A program made the translations under genes and the position numbers. From Candidatus Magasanikbacteria bacterium RIFOXYD1_FULL_40_23 (GTDB lineage Bacteria > Patescibacteriota > Patescibacteriia > Magasanikbacterales > GWA2-37-8): DNA of 64,000 nucleotides. The notes beneath the pieces are model-generated. The model had not been told where the DNA came from. It worked only from the letters and a program-made list of their open reading frames with translations, and searched no databases. Below, piece after piece: positions 26,833-40,768 of this stretch. Positions within the stretch are counted from its first letter, which is position 1. Each line of letters starts with the position of its first letter. The stretch covers positions 57,968 to 121,967 of the forward strand of contig MFRA01000006.1 of NCBI GenBank assembly GCA_001783215.1, given 5' to 3'.

Positions 26833-29800
26833 ATGGTCAAAATTATTAGAAATAGTCGGTCTGTTTTTTCGAAAATACTTTTTTTGGTATTATTTTTTGT
26901 TGTTACAAGTTTTTTCTCAAAGTATTTTTTCTTTAAACCATTACCAGCAAAAGGTTCTTGGCTGGCAACTACAACCTGGATTGGCACTGCGTCCACTGGC
27001 AATTGGCACGATCCTACAAAATGGGATAATGGCGTGCCTACCAGTACGATGCTTGCTATTATTGCTAGTAGCTCAGCTATCACTATTACTGCTACCACCA
27101 CGATTGAGTTTGATACCCTGCGTATTGGTGGTGGTGGGGGTACAGCCTCTTCAACACTTATTCTTGCTACCAATATTGGCGCAGGTGTAGATATAGATAT
27201 TAAAACGATGGGTAAAATTACTCAGAGTAGTACCGCGCAACAAACAATTTCTGGAACATTACTGATCGAAGATGGAGGTCGGCTTACACATTCTGGTAAT
27301 ACCACCGTACAAGCTCGCAGTGTAAATTTTAGGGCAAATACAATAACTGTAAATTCTGGTGGTGTAATTTTTGCTAGCAGTTTAGGATATGCGGGTAGTG
27401 CTGGGGGATCTGGTGAGCCTGGGCAAGGTCCTGGAGCCGGGCAATCTTCTGGTGTTATGGCAGAAGGTGGTGGCGGTGGCCATGGAGGTAGTGGTGCAGA
27501 TGATGGTACAAGTTCGGGTGGTCAAGGATATTGTGATATAACTAACTTAAACACGATAGGTTCCGGAGGCGGTGGTAATAGCTCGTGGGTGGGTACTGCG
27601 GGCGGTGGTCTGATTATTTTATCGGCGACAGGAACGATTACTATAAATGGCTCTATATTGGCTGATGGTGGTACAGGTGGTTCTTTTTCTGCGGGTGGTG
27701 GTGCGGGCGGAGGTATAAAAATAACTGCTGATGTTATAGCTGGTACTCCAAGTAAATTTTCTGCCGATGGTGGAGACACCAGCGGTGTTGGTGGAGGGGG
27801 AGGGTGTGTTTTTTTGGGTTATACAACATCCAATACTATTATTCCCACTTCGTCATATTTTTCAGTCAATGGAGGAGATGGGGATGGTGCTAGTGCTAGT
27901 CTTAACGGATCTGGAGGTATGGTCCTTGTTAAGCAAGATAGTGCTAATGGTAATTTGTATGTTTTAAATGATGTTCTTGTTCCGTCTGTTACCCAGCCCT
28001 CATCTACTGTACCAGCAATAACTGCAGATTTTATTTATGTTAGTAGTACAGTATTTCAAATTACTTCTACAAAAACATTTACCTTGGTAAATAGTGATCC
28101 TTTTTCCGGAAATGGTAGAGGTGAAATTAGAATATATGGAAGTATGGTGAAATCAGCCGGTGTTTTTGATAATGTAAATGATGTTGTTCTTACAATACAA
28201 TCTGGTGGAAGTGTTGCAGTGTCCTCTACGTTTACAGCCAGCTCATCTCTTAGTTTGTATAGAGGTTTTGTTGGTATTACAACTAACACGTTTACTAATC
28301 TTGTTATACAGTCAGGAACAACAACTGTGCACAATTACAGTACTTCCAGTGTGCCACTGACCGTTTCTAACTTAACAGTAAATGGAGGTATTTTTACTCA
28401 CGGAGTTAATTCGTCAACTCAAGATAATATTTTAAATGTTGCTGCTACTAGTAATATTACAGTAAATGCAGGCGGAACTATTTCTGCTAGCGGTACCGGT
28501 TATATTGGAGGTGTTGTGGGTAATGGGCTTGGTCAGGGTCCGGGTGGTGCTTCAAGTTCTCAGAGTAATACGGGCGCCGGAGGTGCTCATGGTGGAAACG
28601 GTGGAAATAATAGCGCAAGTATGGCTGGGCAGGGTTATTGTGATATATCCGATGTAACTACGATTGGTTCCGGAGGAGCCGGTTCTGTATCGGCAAGAGG
28701 TGGTGCGGGCGGCGGTCTTATTATTTTGTCCGCAACTGGTACAATTACCTTAGACGGTGTTATATCCGCCAATGGCGGAGCTGCCAACGATAGTTCGTCT
28801 GGCGGCGGCGGAGGTGGGGGGATTAAAATAACTGCTGATATTATAGCTGGCACTCCAAGTAAATTTTTTGCTGCAGGCGGGAGTCGTTCAAGCGGCAATA
28901 TTGGTGGCGGCGGTGGTGGGTGTGTAAATATATTTTACACCACTTCTAACACTATTTCTCCGACATCGTCTTACTTTTCAATTAGTGGAGGTGTTGGGAG
29001 AGGAACCGGTGTAGATGGTAGTGGAGGTATGGCGTTAATAAAACAAGTCGGTGTTGGTAATGGTGGTTTGTATGTTTTAAATGGTGCTATGGCTGCTTCT
29101 GCCATTACCCAACCCTCATCCACTGTACCAGCTATAACTGCAGATTTTATTTATGTTAGCAGTACAGTATTCCAAATCACTTCTACAAAAACATTTACTT
29201 TGGTAAACAATGATCCTTTTTCCGGAAATGGTAGAGGTGAAATTAGAGTGTATGGAAGCATGGTGAAATCATCAGGTGCTTTTGAAGAGATTAACGATAT
29301 TATTTTTACAATACGATCTGGAGGAAGTATATCTGTCTCTTCTACATTTACAGCTAGTTCATCATTGAATTTATATCGAGGATTTATTGGTACTGCATCC
29401 AATACATTTACCAATTTTATTATTCAATCGGGCACAACCACACTTTATGATTATAATACAAACACAGTGCCGTTGTTTGTAACAAATTTAACAATGAATA
29501 GTAGCAGTGTTTTTACTAATGCTACTAATACGACAGCGCAATCACATATTCTTTATGTGGCTGCGAGCAGTTCAATAACTATCAATGTTGGTGCTCGTGC
29601 TGTATCTAATGGACTAGGTTATGCTGGCGGCGCTGTAAATACGGTGGGTAGTGGTCCGGGTTTTGGATCGGCCACATCTAGCAAAGGCGGCGGCGGCGGA
29701 GCTCATGGTGGTAATGGTGGTGATGGTGCTTCTAGCGGCGGGCTTGGTGGTACAGCTTATTGTAATAGTACAAACCCTACCACAATTGGTTCTGGTGGTG

Positions 29801-31908
29801 GTGGTGGAAATGGGCAGGCGGGGGGATATGGGGGAGGTTTAATTATATTTTCAGCATCAAGCACTATTACTATTAGTGGTAGAATCCAAGCCAATGGAAA
29901 TAGTACAACCGCCAGTGGCGGCGGTGGCGGCGGTGGTGCTATTAGATTAGATGCTCCTACTGTTGCTGGCACCCCTCAAAGTTTTACTGCCAACGGAGGA
30001 AATGGTGGCAGTACTGGTGGTGGCGGTGGTGGTGGTGGTGGATGTATATTTATACGATATAGTGTATCCAATAGTGTAACTAGTAGTAGAGCTACAAGCA
30101 CTTTCGGTACTGGCGGTACAGGCATAGATGGTGTGGCTGGTACATTTGAAACTTTGCAGGTAGTTGTAGTACCTACAGTTACTGCTATTTTTCCTGTTCA
30201 AACCTCTACCAATATTGTGGTGGTTACTACTACAATCGCTGACTCAGAGTTAAATATTACTTCTTTAGCGGTTCTTTATTCTACCGATGGCACCACTTGG
30301 GTATCATCTACAATTGTTAGCGTAAGTCAGGGTGGAGTGGGCGATGGTGTTACAACTTCAACAGGTTTAATTTCTGGGATTGATACCGATGGCTCCGGTT
30401 CTATTAATCTTACATTTGAGTGGAATGCTGGTGTAGATATTTCTAGCACCGAAGACACGACTGTGTATATAAAAATTACACCAAACAACGGCACTTCAAA
30501 TGGCACAGCTGTCTCTTCCACAGCTTTTGCTGCAGATACCAAAGCGCCAACTGCGCCTGGTAGTCTTACCTTATTTAACACTTCAACTCAATCGGCAACT
30601 TTTACTTTTGGTTCTACTTCAACCGATTCAAACTTTGTTCAGTATATTATTTTTTATAAAACCGGATCTTCAAGCGTGGCTATTACTGACACAGCTTTCG
30701 CATCATCTAGCAATTCTAATTTGGGTTTTATAAATTATAACAGTGCCACCAGTACTACGGTTTCGGGTCTAGCCACTTCAACTCAGTATGTTTTTAATAT
30801 TTGGGCTTTTGATGGTTTTAGTAATACTCCTGCAGCAACAGAATCATCTTTTTATACTTTGGCAACAGTCCCTTTGGCACCCACACTTTCTAATCCAGCA
30901 ACATCTACAATAGATGTAACTATCGCATCCGGTGATACTAATCCAGCTGGTGTCACATATGCTATTCAAGAAGCTAGCTCTTCTAGTTATGTACAGAGCA
31001 ATGGAAGTTTAAGTGGTGCTGCTGTCTGGCAGAGTATTTCTACTTGGGGCACAGAAACAGTTACTGGTTTAAACCCTAATACAGGATATTATTTTAGAGT
31101 AAAAGCTAGAAATGGAAATAATGTGGAGACAGGCACATCAACGCAAAGTGCAATAAAATACACTCTAGCTTCTGTTCCTTCGTCGGTTGTAGCTGCGGCA
31201 GATAGTCAAACCCAAATAACTTTATCGTGGACTAGAGATGCAACTTCGTCCTATGCAGAAAATGTAACCGCTAGCACAACTTCGAGCTGGATTTCCGACA
31301 CGTCGTATGCATTTACTGGTTTAACTTGCGCTACAACTTATTTATTTAGAGTTAAAGCGATAAATGGTGAAGGTGTGGAAACTTCTTTTTCATCATCTGT
31401 ATCGGCTCAAACCAGTGCCTGTTCTAGTGATGAAAGTTCTGGTAGTAATAGTGGTGGTGTGGCATATCCAGTCACGCTCTCTCCTCCTCCGGTAGTAGTT
31501 TTGCCAACCCTGCCTGTTGTTGAACCAGAGATTATTGAACCTGAATCAGAAATTGTATATCCAGCAACTCCTACCATAAAGAATGTTCCACCTATCAAAA
31601 ATATTCCACCAAAGGTTCAACCTCCAAAATTAAATCCGTCGGTAAGCACGCCACCGCAAGCGACTGCTACAAAAATTATCCCAAAGCAAACTAGCACTAA
31701 AGAAGATGTTAAGCCGCCAACGGTATCAATCCCTTTAGAAAAAAAAGACACGCTTATTTCTACAACCGATAAAGGAGTGATAAAAAATACTTCAACCAAG
31801 AAGATGGTTGATGATCGTAAGGGCGATTTTGTTAGTAGGATAAATTTGGTCGCTGATAGTTTGTACCTGGCAATTTTGCGATTTTTCAGTTGGTTAAAGT
31901 GGTGGTAG
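26833..31908 (+). CDS. giant (1691 aa) glycine-rich beta-helix-like surface protein with internal tandem repeats, FN3 domains and a Pro-rich stalk
   Basis: N-terminal signal/TM, then three ~370-aa tandem repeats rich in GGxGG and 'GQGYCD...IGSGG'. FN3-like modules follow ('TYLFRVKAINGEGVETS', 'GYYFRVKARNGNNVETG'). Pro-rich region 'PPKVQPPKLNP'. Confidence 0.75.
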   Translation: MVKIIRNSRSVFSKILFLVLFFVVTSFFSKYFFFKPLPAKGSWLATTTWIGTASTGNWHDPTKWDNGVPTSTMLAIIASSSAITITATTTIEFDTLRIGGGGGTASSTLILATNIGAGVDIDIKTMGKITQSSTAQQTISGTLLIEDGGRLTHSGNTTVQARSVNFRANTITVNSGGVIFASSLGYAGSAGGSGEPGQGPGAGQSSGVMAEGGGGGHGGSGADDGTSSGGQGYCDITNLNTIGSGGGGNSSWVGTAGGGLIILSATGTITINGSILADGGTGGSFSAGGGAGGGIKITADVIAGTPSKFSADGGDTSGVGGGGGCVFLGYTTSNTIIPTSSYFSVNGGDGDGASASLNGSGGMVLVKQDSANGNLYVLNDVLVPSVTQPSSTVPAITADFIYVSSTVFQITSTKTFTLVNSDPFSGNGRGEIRIYGSMVKSAGVFDNVNDVVLTIQSGGSVAVSSTFTASSSLSLYRGFVGITTNTFTNLVIQSGTTTVHNYSTSSVPLTVSNLTVNGGIFTHGVNSSTQDNILNVAATSNITVNAGGTISASGTGYIGGVVGNGLGQGPGGASSSQSNTGAGGAHGGNGGNNSASMAGQGYCDISDVTTIGSGGAGSVSARGGAGGGLIILSATGTITLDGVISANGGAANDSSSGGGGGGGIKITADIIAGTPSKFFAAGGSRSSGNIGGGGGGCVNIFYTTSNTISPTSSYFSISGGVGRGTGVDGSGGMALIKQVGVGNGGLYVLNGAMAASAITQPSSTVPAITADFIYVSSTVFQITSTKTFTLVNNDPFSGNGRGEIRVYGSMVKSSGAFEEINDIIFTIRSGGSISVSSTFTASSSLNLYRGFIGTASNTFTNFIIQSGTTTLYDYNTNTVPLFVTNLTMNSSSVFTNATNTTAQSHILYVAASSSITINVGARAVSNGLGYAGGAVNTVGSGPGFGSATSSKGGGGGAHGGNGGDGASSGGLGGTAYCNSTNPTTIGSGGGGGNGQAGGYGGGLIIFSASSTITISGRIQANGNSTTASGGGGGGGAIRLDAPTVAGTPQSFTANGGNGGSTGGGGGGGGGCIFIRYSVSNSVTSSRATSTFGTGGTGIDGVAGTFETLQVVVVPTVTAIFPVQTSTNIVVVTTTIADSELNITSLAVLYSTDGTTWVSSTIVSVSQGGVGDGVTTSTGLISGIDTDGSGSINLTFEWNAGVDISSTEDTTVYIKITPNNGTSNGTAVSSTAFAADTKAPTAPGSLTLFNTSTQSATFTFGSTSTDSNFVQYIIFYKTGSSSVAITDTAFASSSNSNLGFINYNSATSTTVSGLATSTQYVFNIWAFDGFSNTPAATESSFYTLATVPLAPTLSNPATSTIDVTIASGDTNPAGVTYAIQEASSSSYVQSNGSLSGAAVWQSISTWGTETVTGLNPNTGYYFRVKARNGNNVETGTSTQSAIKYTLASVPSSVVAAADSQTQITLSWTRDATSSYAENVTASTTSSWISDTSYAFTGLTCATTYLFRVKAINGEGVETSFSSSVSAQTSACSSDESSGSNSGGVAYPVTLSPPPVVVLPTLPVVEPEIIEPESEIVYPATPTIKNVPPIKNIPPKVQPPKLNPSVSTPPQATATKIIPKQTSTKEDVKPPTVSIPLEKKDTLISTTDKGVIKNTSTKKMVDDRKGDFVSRINLVADSLYLAILRFFSWLKWW
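27298..30140 (+). repeat. about 2.5 intragenic tandem repeats of ~1.11 kb inside the giant CDS
   Basis: Repeat units start near 27298, 28408 and 29527. Stretches such as 27990-28160 and 29105-29275 are about 95% identical at the nucleotide level. Confidence 0.85.
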
Positions 31909-32090
31909 ACTTTTTTGTGTTAGTTAGTTGGTTTGTTAGCTAGTGGACGGACAATTGATAGTTTTTCTGATTTTGGTTATAGTGTTGTAGTAATATTATC
32001 GTATATCAGATAGGGGCTTCGCCACATATATTCTCATTCGCTCGAAAATAATTAAAAAGAGTTTAATTATTTTGCTCACTCATTTCGATT

Positions 32091-32783
32091 ATGAAATTCG
32101 ATATCCTTACAATCTTCCCAAAGTTTTTTGAAAGCTTTAAAACAGAAGCTTTAATTTTACGCGCACAAAAAAAGGAATTAGTTGAAATCAATATTCATAA
32201 CCTGCGCGATTATGCCGATGATGCGCGTGGTACAGTAGATGATAGGCCATACGGCGGTGGGGCTGGAATGGTGCTTATGTTCCCGCCAATTTATAAAGCC
32301 ATAGAAAAAATAAAATCAAAGATAAAAGGAAAAAGTAAAAAAACCAAAATAATTGTTTTTAACCCAAAAGGAAATAAATTTACTCAAGCCATGGCGCGCG
32401 AGTGGTCTAAGTTAGATAGAGTAGTTATGGTTTGTGGTCGCTACGAAGGTATAGATGAGCGAGTTATGACAGAGCTCGCCGATGAAGAAATATCTATCGG
32501 AGATTATGTTTTGTTTGGCGGTGAAGTGCCTGCCATGGTAGTTATGGAAGCAGTTACCAGACTGATACCTGGCGCTATTGGTAAACAAGAATCACTTAAA
32601 GACGAATCGTTTAATGATGCGGGAGAAATGGGTAGGGAACAGTTAACAAAATTTATTGAGTATCCTCATTATACTAGACCGGAGGTTGTGGTTGTAAAGA
32701 AGAAGAAAGTAAAAGTTCCGGAAGTTTTGCTTTCCGGTGATCATAAAAAAATAGAAGAGTGGCGAAGAGAGCAGAGTAAGTAA
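32091..32783 (+). CDS. trmD: tRNA (guanine37-N1)-methyltransferase
   Basis: Classic 'MKFDILTIFP' start and the SPOUT-knot region 'SIGDYVLFGGEVPAMVV'. Confidence 0.88.
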   Translation: MKFDILTIFPKFFESFKTEALILRAQKKELVEINIHNLRDYADDARGTVDDRPYGGGAGMVLMFPPIYKAIEKIKSKIKGKSKKTKIIVFNPKGNKFTQAMAREWSKLDRVVMVCGRYEGIDERVMTELADEEISIGDYVLFGGEVPAMVVMEAVTRLIPGAIGKQESLKDESFNDAGEMGREQLTKFIEYPHYTRPEVVVVKKKKVKVPEVLLSGDHKKIEEWRREQSK

Positions 32784-32826
32784 AAAGGTCTATAAAAATA
32801 TGTGCTTTGCTGCATATTTTCTTCGT

Positions 32827-32945
32827 TCGTTCGGAAATGAAAATTGATTTTCATTTCACTCACTTTACTTGAAAATACTTGGGTATTTTCGGCGTGCGTT
32901 CGGAAGTAAAAATAAATTTTCACTTCCCTCACTTTACTTGAAAAT
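32827..32945 (+). repeat. two tandem copies (~69-nt period) of a hairpin-containing element downstream of trmD
   Basis: cgttcggaaatgaaaattgattttcatttcactcactttacttgaaaata compared with cgttcggaagtaaaaataaattttcacttccctcactttacttgaaaata. Each copy holds a 11-12 bp inverted repeat with one compensatory change. Confidence 0.7.
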
Positions 32946-32950
32946 AATTT

Positions 32951-32980
32951 GCCCCCGTGCACGCGTTGCGTGCCGGGGGC
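32951..32980. terminator. GC-rich hairpin (gcccccgtgcacgc-gtt-gcgtgccgggggc), probably the terminator of the minus-strand NUDIX gene
   Basis: Perfect 13-bp GC stem immediately 3' of the NUDIX stop. Confidence 0.5.
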
Positions 32981-32986
32981 AATTGT

Positions 32987-33640
32987 TCAGCGAGCAATCT
33001 TGAGGCCGAGATGGCTCAGGGCTCGTATCGTGGTGGTGACGGCCGAAGGTTCGGAGATCGAACCATTCATCACCATCTCGAGCCATTGCTCGAGTGAGAC
33101 AAGCCGAGTCTCGATGTCTTCGTTCTCGTCCAGCTTGGCGGGTCCGACCTTCTTGCAGCCGGTTGCCAGGAAGCAGTGGAAGCGGGTGGGTGAGCTACGA
33201 GTGCTAATCCAGCCGAAGCCCAGATAGACCATGAGCTCGGGTACGTAGCCAGTCTCATCGCGTAGTTCGCGACGCATCACCTCTTCGGGAGATTCGCCAA
33301 ACTCCGCAGTTCCTGCCGGTAACTCGTCATCGACGGCATTGCGTCCCTGCTTGAACTCAGACACCACCAGCACCTGCCCGTCGCTGGTGATGGCAAGGCA
33401 GACGGACCAGTCGCGTTGGGCGAACTGCACGTAGTCTTGGATCTTGCCCGACTTCGGGTTAAGGAACTGTTTGACGATGAGCTTCTTGCCGAACTTGCCG
33501 GCCAGAGTCACATCTTCGCCGACTTGTTTCCAGGGCACGATTGCCATTGTGCTCTCCAGTTTGCGTGAGGGTTGGCTGCTTTCAGTGAGTGCAAAGCGCT
33601 CGCGCCGAAAGACCCTGCACAATATCATAAAAACCGTCAT
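32987..33640 (-). CDS. NUDIX hydrolase (high-GC, compositionally foreign)
   Basis: Nudix box 'GTAEFGESPEEVMRRELRDETG'. About 60% GC against ~37% locally. The true start may be the internal Met ('MAIVPWK', ~33547). Confidence 0.7.
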   Translation of the reverse strand: MTVFMILCRVFRRERFALTESSQPSRKLESTMAIVPWKQVGEDVTLAGKFGKKLIVKQFLNPKSGKIQDYVQFAQRDWSVCLAITSDGQVLVVSEFKQGRNAVDDELPAGTAEFGESPEEVMRRELRDETGYVPELMVYLGFGWISTRSSPTRFHCFLATGCKKVGPAKLDENEDIETRLVSLEQWLEMVMNGSISEPSAVTTTIRALSHLGLKIAR

Positions 33641-33697
33641 TCGTCAACCGTTAAAAAGTAATATGTTTTATCCCCAATTTGGCCACAGCCATAGCCC

Positions 33698-33726
33698 TTG
33701 ACGGATATTTGGACTTGTGTTAATAT
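33698..33726 (+). promoter_or_regulatory. candidate sigma70-type promoter upstream of the 16S rRNA
   Basis: TTGACG, a 17-nt spacer, then TAATAT. Sits about 390 nt upstream of the mature 16S 5' end. Confidence 0.45.
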
Positions 33727-34113
33727 TTAGACACTTAAAAACTAAGTAAAAAACCTGCAAATAAAGCACCTCAAAAATTAATTAACTTTGGCAAGTCTCA
33801 ACGCGAGAAACTACCAGTGCTACAACCTACAAATTTTTTTGTAGAGTAGCCGAGAGAAAAGAGCAATCAAGATTTGATTTCTCTTTTTTCTTTCTAGTCA
33901 GGTAACTGGAAAGAAAAAAGTTTTCCAAATGTAAAAATATTGGAAAAGTACATTGACAACACAAATGTGACAAAGACCACAAAAAAAGTCTATCCGAAAA
34001 AACTCGGGTTATTCCGAGTATAAATAATAAATAAATCCAAAAATGATAACTTGTTCATCAGCCCTTGCAGCTTCGGCTGTGTAGGGTGAACAAAAATCAA
34101 TACTCTTTTTTTA

Positions 34114-35732
<1,619 letters not shown>

Positions 35733-35964
35733 GGAGAAACTCAATCGAAAGATTGTGACTCTGTCGAGCCTGGCAACGCAAGTTGCAGAGGCGCTTGCGA
35801 TAAACTTCGGTTTATCAAAAGTTCTGAAAGGATAGAAAAATCTTTGTGTAATCTTTGTCACATTTGTGAAGTCAATGCAAGAAACTGCTTATGGCAGTTT
35901 TTTTGTTTTTGTTTGCATTGACCCTCAGTTGATTTTTTGTTATATATATTGTAAGGAGAGCGTC

Positions 35965-36189
35965 ATGTATTCATCAGATCCGCAACTCAAGTTTAATCTT
36001 TGGTCAGTGCAAATGTCTGAGCAGATGGAGCTTAATCATGTTCCTTTTACTTGGATGGAGCGATTTATAATGGGCGACGCTAAAGTTGATGCCTTTCTCA
36101 AGGCACAACGAAAGCGTTTACGCAAAAATAAACAACAACGCGAGAGAAGAAAAGCGCAAAAGAAGCTGCAAAAGAGGAGGGTCAGGTAA
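35965..36189 (+). CDS. small hypothetical protein with a highly basic C-terminus
   Basis: Strong SD (AAGGAGagcgtcATG). 74 aa ending 'RKRLRKNKQQRERRKAQKKLQKRRVR'. Translationally coupled (TAATG) to the next ORF. Confidence 0.5.
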   Translation: MYSSDPQLKFNLWSVQMSEQMELNHVPFTWMERFIMGDAKVDAFLKAQRKRLRKNKQQRERRKAQKKLQKRRVR

Positions 36190-36515
36190 TGGATAAGGAT
36201 GACCACGAGGAGCGAGATTTAGATCTTGTAGATCCTAAATTTGAAGCGCGGTTTCAAAAGGTGTTGGATGGCATACCGCCAACACCAAAGAAAGGTGACA
36301 AAATTCCTCTCAAGCAAGTTGCTGAGAGTGTGGCGCGTGTCTTGCGCGGGGATTGCTCTAATCGTGAAGTGTCGGAAGAAGAATTGCAAAACGCGCTTGA
36401 ATGGATGGGTGAGCGTGAAGAAGAGCGCAAGCAAGAACAGGTTGTGTTGTTGGTTCAAGTTGTAGGATTGGTGGTGTTTGTTGTTGCGGTGTTGTACGTT
36501 ATTTTTACAGTATAG
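36189..36515 (+). CDS. hypothetical tail-anchored membrane protein
   Basis: Acidic and charged N-terminal region with a single C-terminal TM 'VVLLVQVVGLVVFVVAVLYVIF'. ATG overlaps the upstream stop. Confidence 0.5.
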   Translation: MDKDDHEERDLDLVDPKFEARFQKVLDGIPPTPKKGDKIPLKQVAESVARVLRGDCSNREVSEEELQNALEWMGEREEERKQEQVVLLVQVVGLVVFVVAVLYVIFTV

Positions 36516-36555
36516 CTTTCCAAGGCTTGGGAGCTAAATGTAAAAGTTTATAATT

Positions 36556-36625
36556 TCTAGCCACGAGGATGTAAAATTCGTGGCCTATACAAAAACAATC
36601 TTATAACCTAAGGTTGTTTTTGTTT
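36556..36625 (+). repeat. structured hairpin + 'ctatacaaaaacaatcttataa' + terminator-like element (copy 1)
   Basis: ccacgaggatgtaaaattcgtggcctatacaaaaacaatcttataacctaaggttgtttttg. Confidence 0.6.
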
Positions 36626-36668
36626 TATTTTGCCGCTGTGATATTATAAATTTAGGAGGCAACAAACC

Positions 36669-36860
36669 ATGCGAAAAAGAAGGCGAAAGCTAGTAGCAGG
36701 TAGTGTGCTCTCTGTCGAAGTAGTCGCTCGGAAATTAGGGCCTGCTTTCTTAGATCTTTCTCTTCAGTCAGTCCGTGATGGTCTGGATGAGCAGGAGATG
36801 CAGTTGCTAGTAGCAATTGGTATTAAGTTTGATACGTCAAACTCCATTCTCAGAAATTGA
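36669..36860 (+). CDS. small hypothetical protein
   Basis: Strong SD (ttAGGAGGcaacaaaccATG). 63 aa, basic N-terminus. Confidence 0.45.
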   Translation: MRKRRRKLVAGSVLSVEVVARKLGPAFLDLSLQSVRDGLDEQEMQLLVAIGIKFDTSNSILRN

Positions 36861-36872
36861 GGTTCTATTACA

Positions 36873-36950
36873 AACTTGCCGCGAGGTGCTTATAGGTATT
36901 TCGCGGCCTATACAAAAACAATCTTATAAATTAAGGTTGTTTTTTAATTA
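36873..36950 (+). repeat. structured hairpin + 'ctatacaaaaacaatcttataa' + terminator-like element (copy 2)
   Basis: gccgcgaggtgcttataggtatttcgcggcctatacaaaaacaatcttataaattaaggttgtttttt. The stem differs from copy 1 by compensatory changes (ccacga/tcgtgg versus gccgcga/tcgcggc). Confidence 0.6.
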
Positions 36951-37083
36951 AACAAAGTCGGGCTGCATATTATTGAAACGCAGCGTGGTAAGTATTGACA
37001 AGTCGCATATTTTATGGTTGTGTGGCTATACACAATCACAAAAAAATTTCACTTGTTCCCAGTTGGGAGCGAGAGGGGGTTCA

Positions 37084-37809
37084 ATGACAAAACGAACGTT
37101 GTCAATGTTAGCAGTAGTAGTACTGCTACAGATGTTTTTTGCTCAATCCGCCACCGCCGATGATAAGAGTTTGAAGGTGGAGGAGGAGGTAAAAGACTAT
37201 AAGTGGGCATATTTTGTCGCTTTGCCGGGCTATTATTTTGGGGTGGAGATTCCGTTCCACGAAAGTATGCATGGACTTGCGGCGGCGTTTAACTCGAATT
37301 ACGATGTTGTCGAGTTTAAGCCGTATATGCATTATGACTACAATCAGAATAGGTTTCTCTTTGGTAGTGTGGTCATGGAATGTGAAAAATCGTGCTCTGA
37401 TAAAGTTGGTTTAGGCAAGATAGCTCTTGCGCCTTCCGTTATGACGTCAACACTTTTCATTACATCGGACGTGTTGCTTGCCACCAACGCGGTAGAGCCA
37501 ACCAGTGTTTCTGGTAGGGTTATGTATTTTGCTGGAATGGTTGCTCCTTGGTTAGACTTCACTTACAACACTTTTTGGGCAACAGATATTTCCGATAATG
37601 CAAAGGTCGCCGAAGGTTTTGGGATGTCGCGTTCGTCTGTGGTGGCTGGTGGCGCGCTTATTTCGGCAGTGGGAGCCTGGAGAATTTGGAGTGGGTACAA
37701 GAGAGCTTTTCCCAAAAATATTCGCGCAAAGGCCAAGGAGTCAAACGTGCTTGTCGTTCCTATGGGTGGAGCAGAAACGGTTGGAGTATCGCTCCACGTA
37801 ACATTCTAG
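37084..37809 (+). CDS. secreted HExxH-motif protein (putative zinc metallopeptidase-like)
   Basis: SD 'agggggttcaATG'. Signal peptide 'MTKRTLSMLAVVVLLQMFFAQSATA'. HExxH in 'FHESMHGLAAAF'. The ORF track begins at 36973 but the signal peptide argues for a start at 37084. Confidence 0.5.
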   Translation: MTKRTLSMLAVVVLLQMFFAQSATADDKSLKVEEEVKDYKWAYFVALPGYYFGVEIPFHESMHGLAAAFNSNYDVVEFKPYMHYDYNQNRFLFGSVVMECEKSCSDKVGLGKIALAPSVMTSTLFITSDVLLATNAVEPTSVSGRVMYFAGMVAPWLDFTYNTFWATDISDNAKVAEGFGMSRSSVVAGGALISAVGAWRIWSGYKRAFPKNIRAKAKESNVLVVPMGGAETVGVSLHVTF

Positions 37810-38000
37810 GCAATTTGCAAGGTTCGTATAATCCGGTTTTTCTCCAAGGAGATAGCCGGATATTTTTTATTTATCAATTCGTTCTCAAGAATTATAAAAA
37901 CCAGAGGGCGTTATTTAGGTGTAATTTAGTTAATCAAATAACAACCGCCCCACAGGATGGAGCGGCAAATAGGCGCAATGCCTTAAAGTAAGGAGCTGTG

Positions 38001-38189
38001 TTATTGAAGTTTCTTGCAATCCTTGTCGCCCTGCGAGCCGCTTCCATTGCCACCATCGACGGCGCCAAAGCTTATTGCGTTTGGTGTTGTAGCTCCTTGG
38101 CGACAAAGAGTGCCGCCACCTCTGCCACAGGCGGTGGCAAACACGGATAGGCACAACAGAATCAAAACACCCCTCATCGTTCGGTTCAT
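38001..38189 (-). CDS. small putative lipoprotein / secreted peptide
   Basis: 62 aa. 'MNRTMRGVLILLCLSVFATAC' signal followed by Cys (lipobox-like), then a Gly-rich tail. Confidence 0.3.
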   Translation of the reverse strand: MNRTMRGVLILLCLSVFATACGRGGGTLCRQGATTPNAISFGAVDGGNGSGSQGDKDCKKLQ

Positions 38190-38301
38190 AAGCGTTCTAC
38201 CTCCTGATTTTTATCGTAGCACGCCAGTTAGATAAGGGCAAACCATACCCCTTGATTTATTAGTTTATTTTTGTTACACTTCACTTCGTAAATTAAAAAA
38301 A

Positions 38302-38395
38302 GGCATGTAGCTCAGTTGGTTACCCGCCCGACTGAACGACTTCAGTCGTTCGGGCGGGGAGCGCGGTCGCCTAGGCGACTAATGACGAGTCATTG
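38302..38395 (+). pseudogene. decayed tRNA-Ile-like remnant interrupted by a 36-nt GC-rich hairpin
   Basis: GGCATGTAGCTCAGTTGGTTA matches the 5' third of the adjacent tRNA-Ile. It is followed by cccgcccgactgaacgacttcagtcgttcgggcggg and then a degenerate anticodon-arm-like 'gagcgcggtc...actaatgacgagtc'. No T-arm or acceptor 3' strand. Confidence 0.55.
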
Positions 38396-38414
38396 AAAAA
38401 TGTAGGTAAAAAAA

Positions 38415-38488
38415 GGGCATGTAGCTCAGTTGGTTAGAGCGCGTCACTGATAATGACGAGGTCCCAAGTTCAACTCTTGGCATGCCCA
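38415..38488 (+). tRNA. tRNA-Ile (anticodon GAU)
   Basis: GGGCATGTAGCTCAGTTGGTTAGAGCGCGTCACTGATAATGACGAGGTCCCAAGTTCAACTCTTGGCATGCCCA: canonical Ile(GAT) sequence and cloverleaf. Confidence 0.92.
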
Positions 38489-38497
38489 CACGAAAGG

Positions 38498-38571
38498 GGG
38501 TTCGTAGCTCAGTTGGTTAGAGCGTCGCATTGACATTGCGAAGGTCAGCCGTTCAAGTCGGCTCGGACCCA
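38498..38571 (+). tRNA. tRNA-Val (anticodon GAC)
   Basis: Acceptor GGGTTCG/CGGACCC, anticodon arm TCGCA-TTGACAT-TGCGA, T-arm AGCCG-TTCAAGT-CGGCT, discriminator A. Confidence 0.8.
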
Positions 38572-38674
38572 CAGTTAGAGCGTATCCCACGACGTTTTTT
38601 TGCTGTTTTGCCTAACTTGCAAAAGCTCGAATTTTCATGTAGTATAAGCATACTTAAATTATCTGGATTTTATT

Positions 38675-39280
38675 ATGGTTGATAGCCAAAAACCTAGTTT
38701 TAAACAGTCTCTTTTAATGGCCTTTGGCAGCATTGGTTTATTTTTATTAGAGCTTATAAAAGTAGCTGTTTTGGCTGGTGTGACCATTGCTTTAGTCCGA
38801 TATTTTTTATTCAAGCCCTTTTATGTAAAAGGCGCCTCTATGGAGCCTAATTTTTTTGATAAAGAATATTTGATTATAGATGAATTGAGCTATCGTTTAC
38901 GCGCACCGCAAAGAGGAGAAGTGGTAGTGTTCAAATATCCAGAAAATCCAAAAGAATATTTCTTAAAAAGAATAATTGCCTTGCCAGGTGAAAGAGTAAA
39001 AGTTTCCGAAGGGCAAATTACTATTTATAATCAAGAGCACCCAGAGGGTGTGATTTTAGATGAATCATATTTACCAGACGATTTACTTACCAGTGGCGAC
39101 AGATCTTTTGCACCTTTAACACAAGATCAATATTTTGTAATGGGGGATAATCGACCAAACAGTTATGATTCTCGTCGTTTTGGCGCAGTAGACAAAAGTT
39201 TGGTTGTTGGCAAAGTTTTTTTTAGAGGTTGGCCTTTCAGTCGCGCACAATTTATTTCCGAACCAGATTTAAATATTTAA
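38675..39280 (+). CDS. lepB: signal peptidase I
   Basis: N-terminal TM. Catalytic Ser in 'GASMEPNF', Lys region, and box E 'GDNRPNSYDSR'. Confidence 0.85.
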   Translation: MVDSQKPSFKQSLLMAFGSIGLFLLELIKVAVLAGVTIALVRYFLFKPFYVKGASMEPNFFDKEYLIIDELSYRLRAPQRGEVVVFKYPENPKEYFLKRIIALPGERVKVSEGQITIYNQEHPEGVILDESYLPDDLLTSGDRSFAPLTQDQYFVMGDNRPNSYDSRRFGAVDKSLVVGKVFFRGWPFSRAQFISEPDLNI

Positions 39281-39337
39281 ACTAACAAAATTCACGATTC
39301 ACGTATCATGATACAGGTGTATCCTGCTATATGAATC

Positions 39338-40768
39338 ATGTATTATGAACTAATTATGCCAAAGCAGAAAAAAATAGAAAAGAAAAAATTTGTAAAAAAA
39401 CCAAAATCAGAAAAGCCAAAAGCTCACGCTGAATCTGGTGCAGCAGAACGAGGTAAAAAATCCTACGCTTTGCTTCGTGGTATGCATGACATTTTGCCTA
39501 AAGAAGAAAAGTATTGGAAAGCTGCCTATCACACCGCCGAAAATTTAGCTGAGCATTTTCAGTTTGGTCGTATAGAAAGTCCGCTTCTAGAAGAGGCTAG
39601 CATGTTTGTTCGTTCCATTGGTAAAGGTACAGATGTGGTAGATAAAGAAATGTATATCTTTGAAGACCGTGATGGAAACAAGGTTGCGCTCCGCCCAGAA
39701 GAAACTGCTTCTGTTGTGCGTGCATACATTATGCATGGCATGTGGAATATGGTTCAGCCAGTCAAAATGTGGTACTGGGGATCTATGTTTAGGTACGACC
39801 GCCCACAAGCTGGTAGATTTAGACAATTTAACCAGGTAGGCTTTGAAATTTTAGGAGATGCCGATCCGGTGCAGGATGCGGAATTAATTTTAATTGCTCA
39901 TAATTTTTATAAAGACTTAGGTTTGCCGGTTGAGATTCACATAAACAGCATTGGTGTTCCAGAAGAAAGACAAAAGTATAAAACAGCTTTGGTGGAGTAT
40001 TACCGTAGTAAGCGCAGTTATTTGTGCGATGATTGCAAGCAAAGATTAAACAAGAATCCATTACGTCTTCTTGATTGTAAACAAGAAAGATGTCTCCCGA
40101 TAAAAGAAGAAGCTCCACAAATTATTGCTTGGCTAGAAGAAGAATCCAAAAACCACTTCATGAAAGTTTTGGAATATTTGGATGAGCTATCTGTTCCGTA
40201 CGTTCTAAAATCTACACTTGTTCGTGGTTTGGATTATTACACCCGCACCGTTTTTGAAGTTTATCCGGTTATGCCAGAAGGAGATGAGTCTGCGCTTGGC
40301 GCCCAAAGCGCTTTGGGCGGTGGCGGACGTTACGATTTGCTTGTAGAAGAAATGGGAGGCAAGTCTGCTCCAGCTGTAGGGTTTTCTTTGGGGGTAGAGA
40401 GATCGGTTTCGGCTCTTAAGCAATATCTAGATGCTCAACAAATTAAATTTCCAACACAGCAGGTAGATGTATTTTTGGCGCAGCTTGGAGATCAGGCTCG
40501 TCGCCGCGCGCTTAAGACCATAAATGAGTTGCGAACTTCCGGGGTGAAGGTTGCTTATAACTTTTCCAAGAACTCATTAAAGAGTCAGTTGGAAACAGCC
40601 AACAATTTACAAGTTCCTTATGCTCTTATTTTGGGTCAAAAAGAAGTTCAGGATGGCACAATTATTATCCGAGATATGGAATCAGGCGTCCAAGAAATTG
40701 TTGATCAGAAGAAAGTTGAGCACTTGCTCAAAAAGAAATTATCTCGGTTTGACGTTAATGCAAAATAA
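39338..40768 (+). CDS. hisS: histidine--tRNA ligase with a Lys-rich N-terminal extension
   Basis: Class II motifs ('YYTRTVFEV', 'GGGRYD') and a C-terminal anticodon-binding domain. About 40-aa K-rich leader 'MPKQKKIEKKKFVKKPKSEKPK'. An alternative start lies at 39356. Confidence 0.85.
   Translation: MYYELIMPKQKKIEKKKFVKKPKSEKPKAHAESGAAERGKKSYALLRGMHDILPKEEKYWKAAYHTAENLAEHFQFGRIESPLLEEASMFVRSIGKGTDVVDKEMYIFEDRDGNKVALRPEETASVVRAYIMHGMWNMVQPVKMWYWGSMFRYDRPQAGRFRQFNQVGFEILGDADPVQDAELILIAHNFYKDLGLPVEIHINSIGVPEERQKYKTALVEYYRSKRSYLCDDCKQRLNKNPLRLLDCKQERCLPIKEEAPQIIAWLEEESKNHFMKVLEYLDELSVPYVLKSTLVRGLDYYTRTVFEVYPVMPEGDESALGAQSALGGGGRYDLLVEEMGGKSAPAVGFSLGVERSVSALKQYLDAQQIKFPTQQVDVFLAQLGDQARRRALKTINELRTSGVKVAYNFSKNSLKSQLETANNLQVPYALILGQKEVQDGTIIIRDMESGVQEIVDQKKVEHLLKKKLSRFDVNAK

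Follow-up and report, generated by a model that had tools for sequence, protein, structure and literature searches.

A GC-rich Nudix hydrolase islet between trmD and the 16S rRNA gene of Candidatus Magasanikbacteria, probably exchanged laterally among Patescibacteria

How a single gene rich in guanine and cytosine (GC) comes to lie between trmD and the 16S rRNA gene of a low-GC bacterium is the question raised by a 64,000-nucleotide stretch of Candidatus Magasanikbacteria bacterium RIFOXYD1_FULL_40_23 (assembly GCA_001783215.1, contig MFRA01000006.1, positions 57,968 to 121,967), hereafter the window. The gene lies on the minus strand and encodes a Nudix hydrolase; an initial annotation had read it as a recent acquisition from a high-GC donor, possibly an actinobacterial host, or else as a chimeric contig join. 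We favour another origin, at a probability of about 0.68: the block 32951-33647 would be a single-gene islet of Candidatus Magasanikbacteria, laterally exchanged among Patescibacteria into the trmD-16S gap, coming from a GC-richer source and ameliorating since. We propose lateral exchange into one and the same gap because the composition is foreign, the gene is under purifying selection, the slot is polymorphic among relatives and the Nudix and trmD identities conflict.

The base composition sets the block apart from the rest of the window. The window has a mean GC of 39.6%; the 500-bp bin 33001-33500 reaches 58.6%, and the other bins lie mostly between 32 and 45%. A maximum-scoring-segment scan placed the bounds of the GC-rich block exactly at 32951-33620 (59.0% GC, score 60, the top segment of the window), followed by the 16S gene with a score of 36 and by Gly-rich (Gly-codon) repeats and tRNAs with scores of 15-20. 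The compositional boundaries at 32951 and 33620 are sharp. In tetranucleotide usage the block lies at a distance of 0.80 from the window, compared to 0.39 ± 0.06 (maximum 0.70) for 190 equal-sized windows, i.e. 7 standard deviations above the mean. The sole open reading frame (ORF) within the block is the Nudix gene, with a GC of 58.1% and values of 0.60, 0.41 and 0.73 at the first, second and third codon positions (GC1, GC2 and GC3). The comparison set, i.e. the 43 other ORFs of at least 100 amino acids (aa) in the window, shows a GC of 0.389 ± 0.031 and a GC3 of 0.329 ± 0.048 (maximum 0.47), which corresponds to z values of 6.2 and 8.3, respectively, for the Nudix gene. Leucine is encoded through CTG and CTC, arginine through CGC without any AGA, and lysine by 10 AAG versus 2 AAA codons. 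The codon choice and composition of the Nudix unit are foreign to the host. The initial annotation had described a GC-rich NUDIX ORF in a low-GC genome, unlike the other genes of the window in composition and codon usage, and windowed GC, codon and tetranucleotide analyses agree with it on both points.

The block and its surroundings contain the following features:

32091-32783, plus strand: trmD (tRNA m1G37 methyltransferase; Pfam tRNA_m1G_MT, 2.8e-54), the conserved gene to the left of the slot, transcribed toward the Nudix gene
32815-32949, no strand: two tandem AT-rich repeat units of about 69 nt, 85% identical, found by repeat search, each with an internal AT-rich hairpin
32951-32980, minus strand: GC-rich hairpin, GCCCCCGGCACGC-aac-GCGTGCaCGGGGGC on the gene strand, 6 nt past the stop codon, at the left edge of the block
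32987-33547, minus strand: Nudix hydrolase coding sequence, 186 aa plus stop, with the predicted fold of a nucleoside diphosphate (NDP)-sugar pyrophosphatase of the ADP-ribose/GDP-mannose type (Pfam NUDIX, 6e-14)
33548-33612, minus strand: GC-rich 5' leader of about 65 nt, with a stem-loop near its 5' end, a conserved CCAACCCTCAC motif and a GGAGAG Shine-Dalgarno sequence at 33557-33552
33619-33647, minus strand: promoter-like site of the Nudix gene, TTGACG, 17 nt, TGaTATTGT (extended -10), scan score 9/12 with the TG
33698-33726, plus strand: P1-like promoter of the 16S gene, TTGACG, 17 nt, TAATAT with a TG, found by promoter scan
34107-35730, plus strand: 16S rRNA gene (Rfam SSU_rRNA_bacteria, 1405 bits), the conserved right flank of the slot

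The longest reading of the Nudix ORF, 32987-33640, gives a 217-aa protein, the length in the public annotation OGH92360.1. We took the start at 33547 instead (186 aa, MAIVPW...) because of the homolog alignment, in which all homologs begin there, and of the GGAGAG Shine-Dalgarno sequence lying 5 nt upstream. The 5' end of the leader was placed from the position of the promoter-like site, whose -35 element lies at 33647-33642 and whose -10 element lies at 33624-33619; this site is AT-rich and lies at the right edge of the block. It is divergent from the P1-like promoter of the 16S gene, the two standing back-to-back about 50 nt apart, and the gene does lie directly upstream of the 16S promoter, as initially annotated. 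On the other side, the hairpin that had been said to accompany the gene has a folding energy of -30.7 kcal/mol within 71 nt of sequence (z = -4.1), a stability reached by 0 of 200 shuffled sequences. The tail after the stem, AAAUUAUUUUC, is T-rich with an imperfect T-tract and falls below the 5-of-8 rule of the consensus terminator scan. From its position and fold, this hairpin is probably a transcription terminator. The 69-nt repeat pair, host-like in composition, sits between the trmD stop codon and the hairpin. It has no further copy elsewhere in the window; among relatives one similar unit is found in locus L136 and none in L132, and the pair is possibly a duplicated trmD terminator region.

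The state of the trmD-16S slot was then compared among relatives located through trmD. The GC3 of the window trmD is 0.32, and its 87-93% identical homologs are named or placed in Candidatus Magasanikbacteria. The loci compared, with trmD and Nudix identities to the window, are:

L132, trmD 93%: the gap holds the orthologous Nudix gene, 90% identical in amino acids, with the same hairpin
L136, trmD 90%: the gap holds a different Nudix gene of 239 aa, 29% identical, with 60% GC and a GC3 of 0.80
L133, L139 and L140, trmD 87-89%: the gap is empty, with 25-39% GC
L141, trmD 83%: the gap holds an unrelated AT-rich ORF of 75 aa
L015, trmD 83%, Nudix 57%: a family member lies between trmD and 16S
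L137, trmD 52%, Nudix 74%: a family member lies between trmD and 16S
L016 and L007: a family member lies in the slot, with only the 16S flank present
L053, a distant relative, at about 1130-1480: a truncated Nudix remnant of 114 aa ends just before the convergent trmD and looks like the decay of a slot occupant
L043: a Nudix gene lies just upstream of trmD-16S, not between them

Three states of the slot thus occur among near neighbours, i.e. a Nudix gene of the window type, a different Nudix gene and an empty gap; 16S identity among the window, L132, L133 and L136 is 96.6-98.2%. Nudix and trmD give conflicting identities: 74 and 52% between the window and L137, 57 and 83% between the window and L015, and 29 and 90% between the window and L136. 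This incongruence requires lateral exchange or replacement at a fixed position. The elements around the gene are shared more widely than the gene itself. In L136, the hairpin and promoter are nearly the same as in the window despite the 29% identical Nudix protein, and the same or a near-identical hairpin stands 3' of the gene in L132, L136, L015, L137, L007 and L016, i.e. in seven loci with the window. The leaders of these six loci can be aligned with that of the window, and TTGACA-N17-TATTAT is kept at the equivalent promoter position in L132, L136, L007, L015 and L016. As promoter, leader and hairpin are alignable across the seven slot-type loci, the expression unit moves, or is conserved, as a whole. 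RNAalifold on the seven leaders gave no consensus pairs, the stem-loops being out of register, and an Rfam search at E<=1 over 32784-34106 returned chance-level matches only, none of them for the leader. The P1-like promoter of the 16S gene is conserved in L132, L133 and L136, including the genome with the empty slot.

The occupant of L136 belongs to a second Nudix-like family of 239-245 aa, with about 20 members in Magasanikbacteria and Liptonbacteria that are mostly annotated as hypothetical, and which can also fill the trmD-16S slot. Examples are L136 6859-7578 and L142 5001-5738, each with a higher GC than any gene around it; in L142 the gene lies 3' of an inositol-monophosphatase gene, as do some members of the first family.

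The divergence between the window and L132 bears on the age of the gene. The two Nudix genes differ with a synonymous divergence (dS) of ≈0.55 and a ratio of nonsynonymous to synonymous divergence (dN/dS) of 0.09, and the adjacent trmD genes with a dS of 1.03. Because of this dN/dS we consider the Nudix gene functional, and the statement of the initial annotation that the ORF is not junk holds. As judged from these divergences, the gene either dates back to about the separation of the window and L132 lineages or was later passed between them, and it is not a very recent arrival. The proposal of a recent horizontal acquisition is therefore retained for its lateral part, which slot polymorphism and the Nudix/trmD conflict support, and given up for its recency. 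A two-state decay from a GC3 of ≈0.9, as in L016, toward the host value of 0.32 over the class-changing divergence predicts a GC3 of ≈0.74, with 0.73 and 0.78 observed, and predicts about 0.29 differences between strong (G or C) and weak (A or T) bases at fourfold sites, with about 0.29 observed. This result is consistent with import followed by amelioration; a stationary model can also be made to fit.

We also investigated what the enzyme might do. The window protein matches Pfam NUDIX (PF00293) with 52.6 bits (cut-off 21.1, E 6e-14), and its Nudix box, GTAEFGESPEEVMRRELRDETG, at about residues 79-101, fits GX5EX7REUXEEXGU save for D97 at the first E of the EE pair. The consensus of the family at this position is E, with Q or A in some members, and the L132 ortholog has E. 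The box had been described as intact; it is indeed present, with one of its acidic residues replaced by another. The AlphaFold model of the protein (predicted local distance difference test score, pLDDT, 95.4) contains the Nudix-box helix at 87-99. The family profile matched in PDB T. thermophilus Ndx2 (2yvm, 7e-23), the Bacillus methanolicus ADPRase (8wv3, 2.5e-20), Bdellovibrio NudF (5c7q, 2e-18) and E. coli NudK (3o52, 7.6e-11), as well as the M. tuberculosis ADPRase, and Foldseek gave template modelling (TM) scores of 0.85-0.88 over 177-186 columns to 2yvm, 5c7q, 5i8u and 3o61. The NCBIfam models scored far below their curated cut-offs, with 38.3 bits against 169 for NudE (NF008736), 30.9 against 79.55 for YffH/AdpP (TIGR00052) and 25.3 against 248 for NudF (NF008003). 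The protein is a relative of NudE, YffH and NudF and an ortholog of none of them. In other genomes, family members neighbour genes for GDP-mannose 4,6-dehydratase, epimerases, RmlC/RmlD-like enzymes, GT2/GT4 glycosyltransferases, Wzy-type ligases and inositol monophosphatases, and they sometimes occur in tandem copies. Fold and neighbourhoods together suggest that the enzyme would be a pyrophosphatase of nucleotide sugars of the ADP-ribose or GDP-mannose type. A role in rRNA regulation, e.g. through (p)ppGpp hydrolysis, was also considered in view of the back-to-back promoters; it is without evidence, and the family neighbourhoods suggest sugar-nucleotide metabolism instead.

Tandem or adjacent Nudix paralogs were seen in Patescibacteria loci at L020 1169-2319, L008 10004-11356 and L027 1710-2756 and in L021 and L006. 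The pairs adjoin GDP-mannose dehydratase or RmlD-like genes, and the L020, L021 and L006 copies are at host GC.

The history that we favour, lateral exchange among Patescibacteria, would involve a unit made of a sigma-70-like promoter, a GC-rich leader of about 65 nt, the gene of a 186-aa Nudix NDP-sugar pyrophosphatase and a GC-rich hairpin terminator. This unit would have come into the lineage from a source of higher GC, no later than the L132 split, and then drifted toward the host composition. Host recombination acting on the conserved flanks, i.e. trmD and the 16S gene with its leader, could have inserted or replaced it, and the enzyme may trim a pool of ADP-ribose or GDP-mannose-like nucleotide sugars. 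An exchange of the slot among Patescibacteria agrees with the finding that most detected gene transfers involving this group take place within it (PMC12455944).

The search for a donor covered several protein collections. About 46 family members at 38-76% identity were recovered among 5.8 billion proteins, the named ones being Magasanikbacteria or 'Patescibacteria group', and a scan of all 1.84 billion cluster representatives gave 37 clusters at E<=1e-30. All placeable homologs of 45-76% identity come from low-GC contigs of Patescibacteria type or are named as Patescibacteria; among the 5.8 billion proteins, no homolog of more than 38% identity was found outside such contigs or names, and none of the close ones is actinobacterial, the best actinobacterial match being 30% identical. 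In most of about 50 fetched loci the homolog lies 5-26 GC points above its low-GC flanks (e.g. 64% against 37% in L016, 62% against 41% in L002 and 63% against 44% in L015). It has the top GC3 in 14 of the 23 loci with at least 4 other ORFs and is at host composition in 8-9 loci, so that high GC is common in the Nudix family without being intrinsic to it. Best homologs from low-GC Patescibacteria had been named in the initial annotation as the outcome that would speak against a foreign origin. Such homologs were found, but a foreign origin is not thereby refuted, because they are themselves GC-rich islets in low-GC flanks. Carriage of the gene by a phage or plasmid was considered and dropped: IMG/VR, INPHARED and PLSDB held generic Nudix matches of at most 38, 34 and 31% identity, respectively. 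Amino-acid composition was also tried as a proxy for donor GC and set aside, being mixed across 147 cluster representatives with no close high-GC relative.

Several public MAG contigs with a member of this Nudix family are low in GC and have a Patescibacteria-type 16S or trmD, but are binned under unrelated phyla, namely L006 and L015 (Gammaproteobacteria), L007 (Bdellovibrionales) and L014 (Aminicenantes). The 5' end of the L015 16S gene is 96% identical to that of the window, and these contigs are probably mis-binned.

Four other explanations were weighed against the favoured one. An assembly chimera or contaminant, i.e. a high-GC fragment joined into a low-GC contig, would account for the sharp compositional boundaries. 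The independently assembled contig L001 (ENA ERZ5996431 NODE_5954, 9.3 kb) carries the same trmD-Nudix arrangement and is 100% identical to window positions 31900-33753, so that it matches base for base across both GC junctions and 130 nt beyond; its coverage of 2.5x and its last 110 nt (beyond 33761), which do not match the window, are the points that could still be put on the side of a chimera. The identical protein (OGH92360.1, Candidatus Magasanikbacteria) is found on 8 contigs from several sources, the longest being a Magasanikbacteria contig of 389 kb. Seven further independent assemblies of related organisms also have a homolog between trmD and 16S, its promoter and hairpin arranged as in the window, and the promoter and flanking repeats of the window are host-like and contiguous with the block. 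A chimera is therefore extremely improbable: the Nudix islet is a real part of the Magasanikbacteria chromosome, contrary to the chimeric join initially considered as an alternative. A recent direct acquisition from a high-GC donor outside Patescibacteria, e.g. the actinobacterial host of an episymbiont, fits a GC3 of 0.73 here and of up to 0.91 in the closest relatives (L016), which is typical of genomes of at least 60-65% GC. The family also includes a clade on contigs with 57-70% GC flanks, and about 7 of its 37 clusters have a high-GC-type amino-acid composition. This clade is only 40-47% identical to the window protein, it prefers CGG over CGC and G over C at third positions where the slot copies prefer CGC over CGG and C over G, and its arginine share, R/(R+K), is 0.72-0.88 in homologs from truly high-GC genomes, compared to about 0.45 in the slot copies. 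No member of the window's own subclade was found on a high-GC contig, the gene is already common to the window and L132 at a dS of 0.55, and the nearest relatives in other hosts occupy the same slot, which points to exchange from one Patescibacterium to another. Together with the identities found in the donor search, this makes a direct high-GC donor improbable, and the actinobacterial one that had been suggested is abandoned.

A native, essentially vertical gene whose GC-rich composition is maintained by codon or mRNA selection, or by GC-biased repair near the rRNA operon, deserves somewhat more weight and is nevertheless unlikely. It would explain why a Nudix gene accompanies trmD and 16S even where the host trmD is only 52-55% identical (L137, L053, L043), and why slot copies with saturated synonymous divergence all stay at a GC3 of 0.73-0.91. 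The amino-acid shift is mild, so that the excess of GC is mostly synonymous, and a family-B homolog has the highest GC3 of its neighbourhood even in a Liptonbacteria genome of 54% GC. Against it stand the 8-9 loci with family members at plain host composition, the very close relatives with an empty slot or a different gene and the strong Nudix/trmD incongruence. As for GC-biased repair, the adjacent trmD and intergenic DNA are not GC-enriched, and it would need to stop exactly at the transcript ends. Alternatively, the unit could be a site-specific mobile cassette, integron-like or other, with the conserved 3' hairpin as the recombination site on which a trans-acting recombinase works. Promoter, leader, ORF and hairpin do behave as a unit, this unit is found at the same site in distant hosts, and the hairpin arm GCCCCCGGCACGC, which has a bulged base, is identical in the window and L136 where the ORFs are only 29% identical. 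But no integrase or recombinase was found among the called genes within about 6 kb in L001, L132, L133 and L136 (the whole window was not scanned for integrases), and the hairpin, of about 30 nt, has none of the RYYYAAC/GTTRRRY boxes of attC. The 64-kb window contains neither a second copy of the hairpin nor a cassette array, family members outside the slot have no such hairpin, and a stem with a T-rich tract between convergent genes has the appearance of a terminator. We hold such a cassette to be very unlikely. The narrower reading as an integron gene cassette was rejected on the missing attC boxes, the single hairpin copy in 64 kb and the lack of a recombinase among the genes called nearby.

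Several observations weigh against lateral exchange from a GC-richer source with amelioration as we have presented it. The slot copies, although 29-74% identical, all keep a GC3 of 0.73-0.91 in hosts with a GC3 of 0.25-0.41; this would not be expected from a one-off acquisition with amelioration, and several separate imports or a force holding GC up are required. The R/(R+K) of about 0.45 in the slot copies is far from the 0.72-0.88 of the homologs in high-GC genomes, and the donor search yielded no high-GC contig with a close relative. At the DNA level, the flanks of the window and L137 share only the 16S gene and its leader, not trmD, and recombination through the flanks is itself inferred. 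The incongruence was established with pairwise identities and a neighbour-joining tree of about 190 residues. Substitutions between the window and L132 polarised with four outgroups, 40 GC-to-AT and 7 AT-to-GC, were dropped as evidence of decay, because saturated outgroups of about 85% GC3 give the same 5.7:1 ratio by chance. With regard to function, the window copy of the Nudix box carries a D for the first E of the EE pair. The persistence of the high GC3 would be explained either by an unsampled GC-rich pool that repeatedly feeds the slot or by a force that holds the cassette off the host composition. It is conceivable, if rather doubtful, that a promoter-leader-Nudix-hairpin cassette lineage circulates among low-GC Patescibacteria and repeatedly enters the trmD-16S gap, its high GC3 being upheld by constant exchange or by GC-biased repair rather than by a new import of each copy from a high-GC organism. 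If true, it would be a composition-stable 'roaming gene', free of mobile elements and tied to the rRNA locus, with the near-universal 16S sequence anchoring the recombination of DNA that was taken up from distant lineages.

Further variation was seen around the islet. Positions 1-110 of L001 (opposite the window from 33762 onward) are a sequence found nowhere in the window; they may reflect strain variation in the 16S leader, or noise at the end of a contig covered 2.5x. The 16S leader of the window differs at 33740-33850 from that of L132, L133 and L136. The 16S gene measures 1624 nt compared to 1533 nt for the model, and no 23S gene lies downstream of it in the remaining 28 kb of the window. 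The order over 34107-40768 is 16S, three ORFs without a Pfam match, tRNA-Ile(GAT), tRNA-Val(GAC), a signal-peptidase-like gene and hisS, and L133 and L136 have the same 16S-tRNA-tRNA-lepB-hisS order. As no 23S follows and the order is the same in these two relatives, the rRNA genes appear unlinked. The spacer between 16S and tRNA-Ile (35731-38414, 2.7 kb) contains the ORFs 35866-36189, 36189-36515 and 36973-37809, which have the next-highest GC3 of the window (0.42-0.47) and no convincing Pfam match. This spacer is about 0.9 kb in L133 and holds different small ORFs in L132; it looks like a second variable slot. Immediately upstream of trmD, 26833-31908 encodes a Gly/Ser/Thr-rich protein of 1691 aa that contains long repeats and ends in fibronectin-III domains at its C-terminus; relatives have a 270-aa ORF in its place. 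The differences between L001 and the window (2-3%) are confined to the repeats of this protein.

For genome curation, the block is not to be trimmed as contamination. It offers a small, clean example of accessory-gene turnover in the ultra-small genomes of Patescibacteria, without mobile-element genes and reaching distant lineages, and its persistent high GC3 is a tractable test case of amelioration versus maintained composition in bacteria. If an NDP-sugar pyrophosphatase is repeatedly re-acquired, the enzyme presumably matters for the nucleotide-sugar or ADP-ribose housekeeping of these metabolite-scavenging organisms.

Islets of this kind are already known; the present case, and the way it recurs beside the 16S gene in different Patescibacteria, seem not to have been described. 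For hotspots of horizontal gene transfer without mobile-element genes and for small variable segments between core genes, turnover by flank recombination is the published model (PMC5635113; PMC2884548). Like such hotspots (Oliveira et al. 2017; Touzain et al. 2010), the slot lies between conserved genes, here trmD and 16S, turns over fast, has an atypical composition and shows no recombinase. Unlike them, it is flanked by an rRNA gene and its promoter, exchange spans hosts whose trmD are only about 52% identical, a Nudix hydrolase of high GC is the occupant time and again, and flank recombination is here a putative mechanism. In the same way, the unit resembles integron cassettes as a short one-ORF element followed by an imperfect hairpin, with a non-host composition and a fixed site; it differs from them by its own promoter, by a short hairpin lacking attC boxes and by the absence of an integrase, attI or array.

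At the protein level, the predicted structure shares its full-length fold, with root-mean-square deviations of 1.6-3.2 Å, with Ndx2 (2YVM), the Bdellovibrio protein (5C7Q), the M. tuberculosis ADPRase (1MK1/5I8U) and NudK/YffH (3O52). It has the Nudix box in the same helix and the N-terminal beta-strand region in common with these NDP-sugar pyrophosphatases, from which it differs by an identity of only 18-27% and by the D for the first E of the EE pair.

Gene clusters for glycans are textbook cases of loci that are exchanged laterally and have an atypical composition, and the Nudix hydrolase Gmm/WcaH (NudD) of E. coli is encoded in one of them, the colanic acid cluster. Like such polysaccharide-cluster enzymes, other members of the family adjoin genes for GDP-mannose 4,6-dehydratase, epimerases, GT2/GT4 enzymes and Wzy-type ligases. 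The likeness to Gmm/WcaH is one of gene context in these other genomes, whereas the window copy stands alone beside an rRNA promoter with no glycan genes around it.

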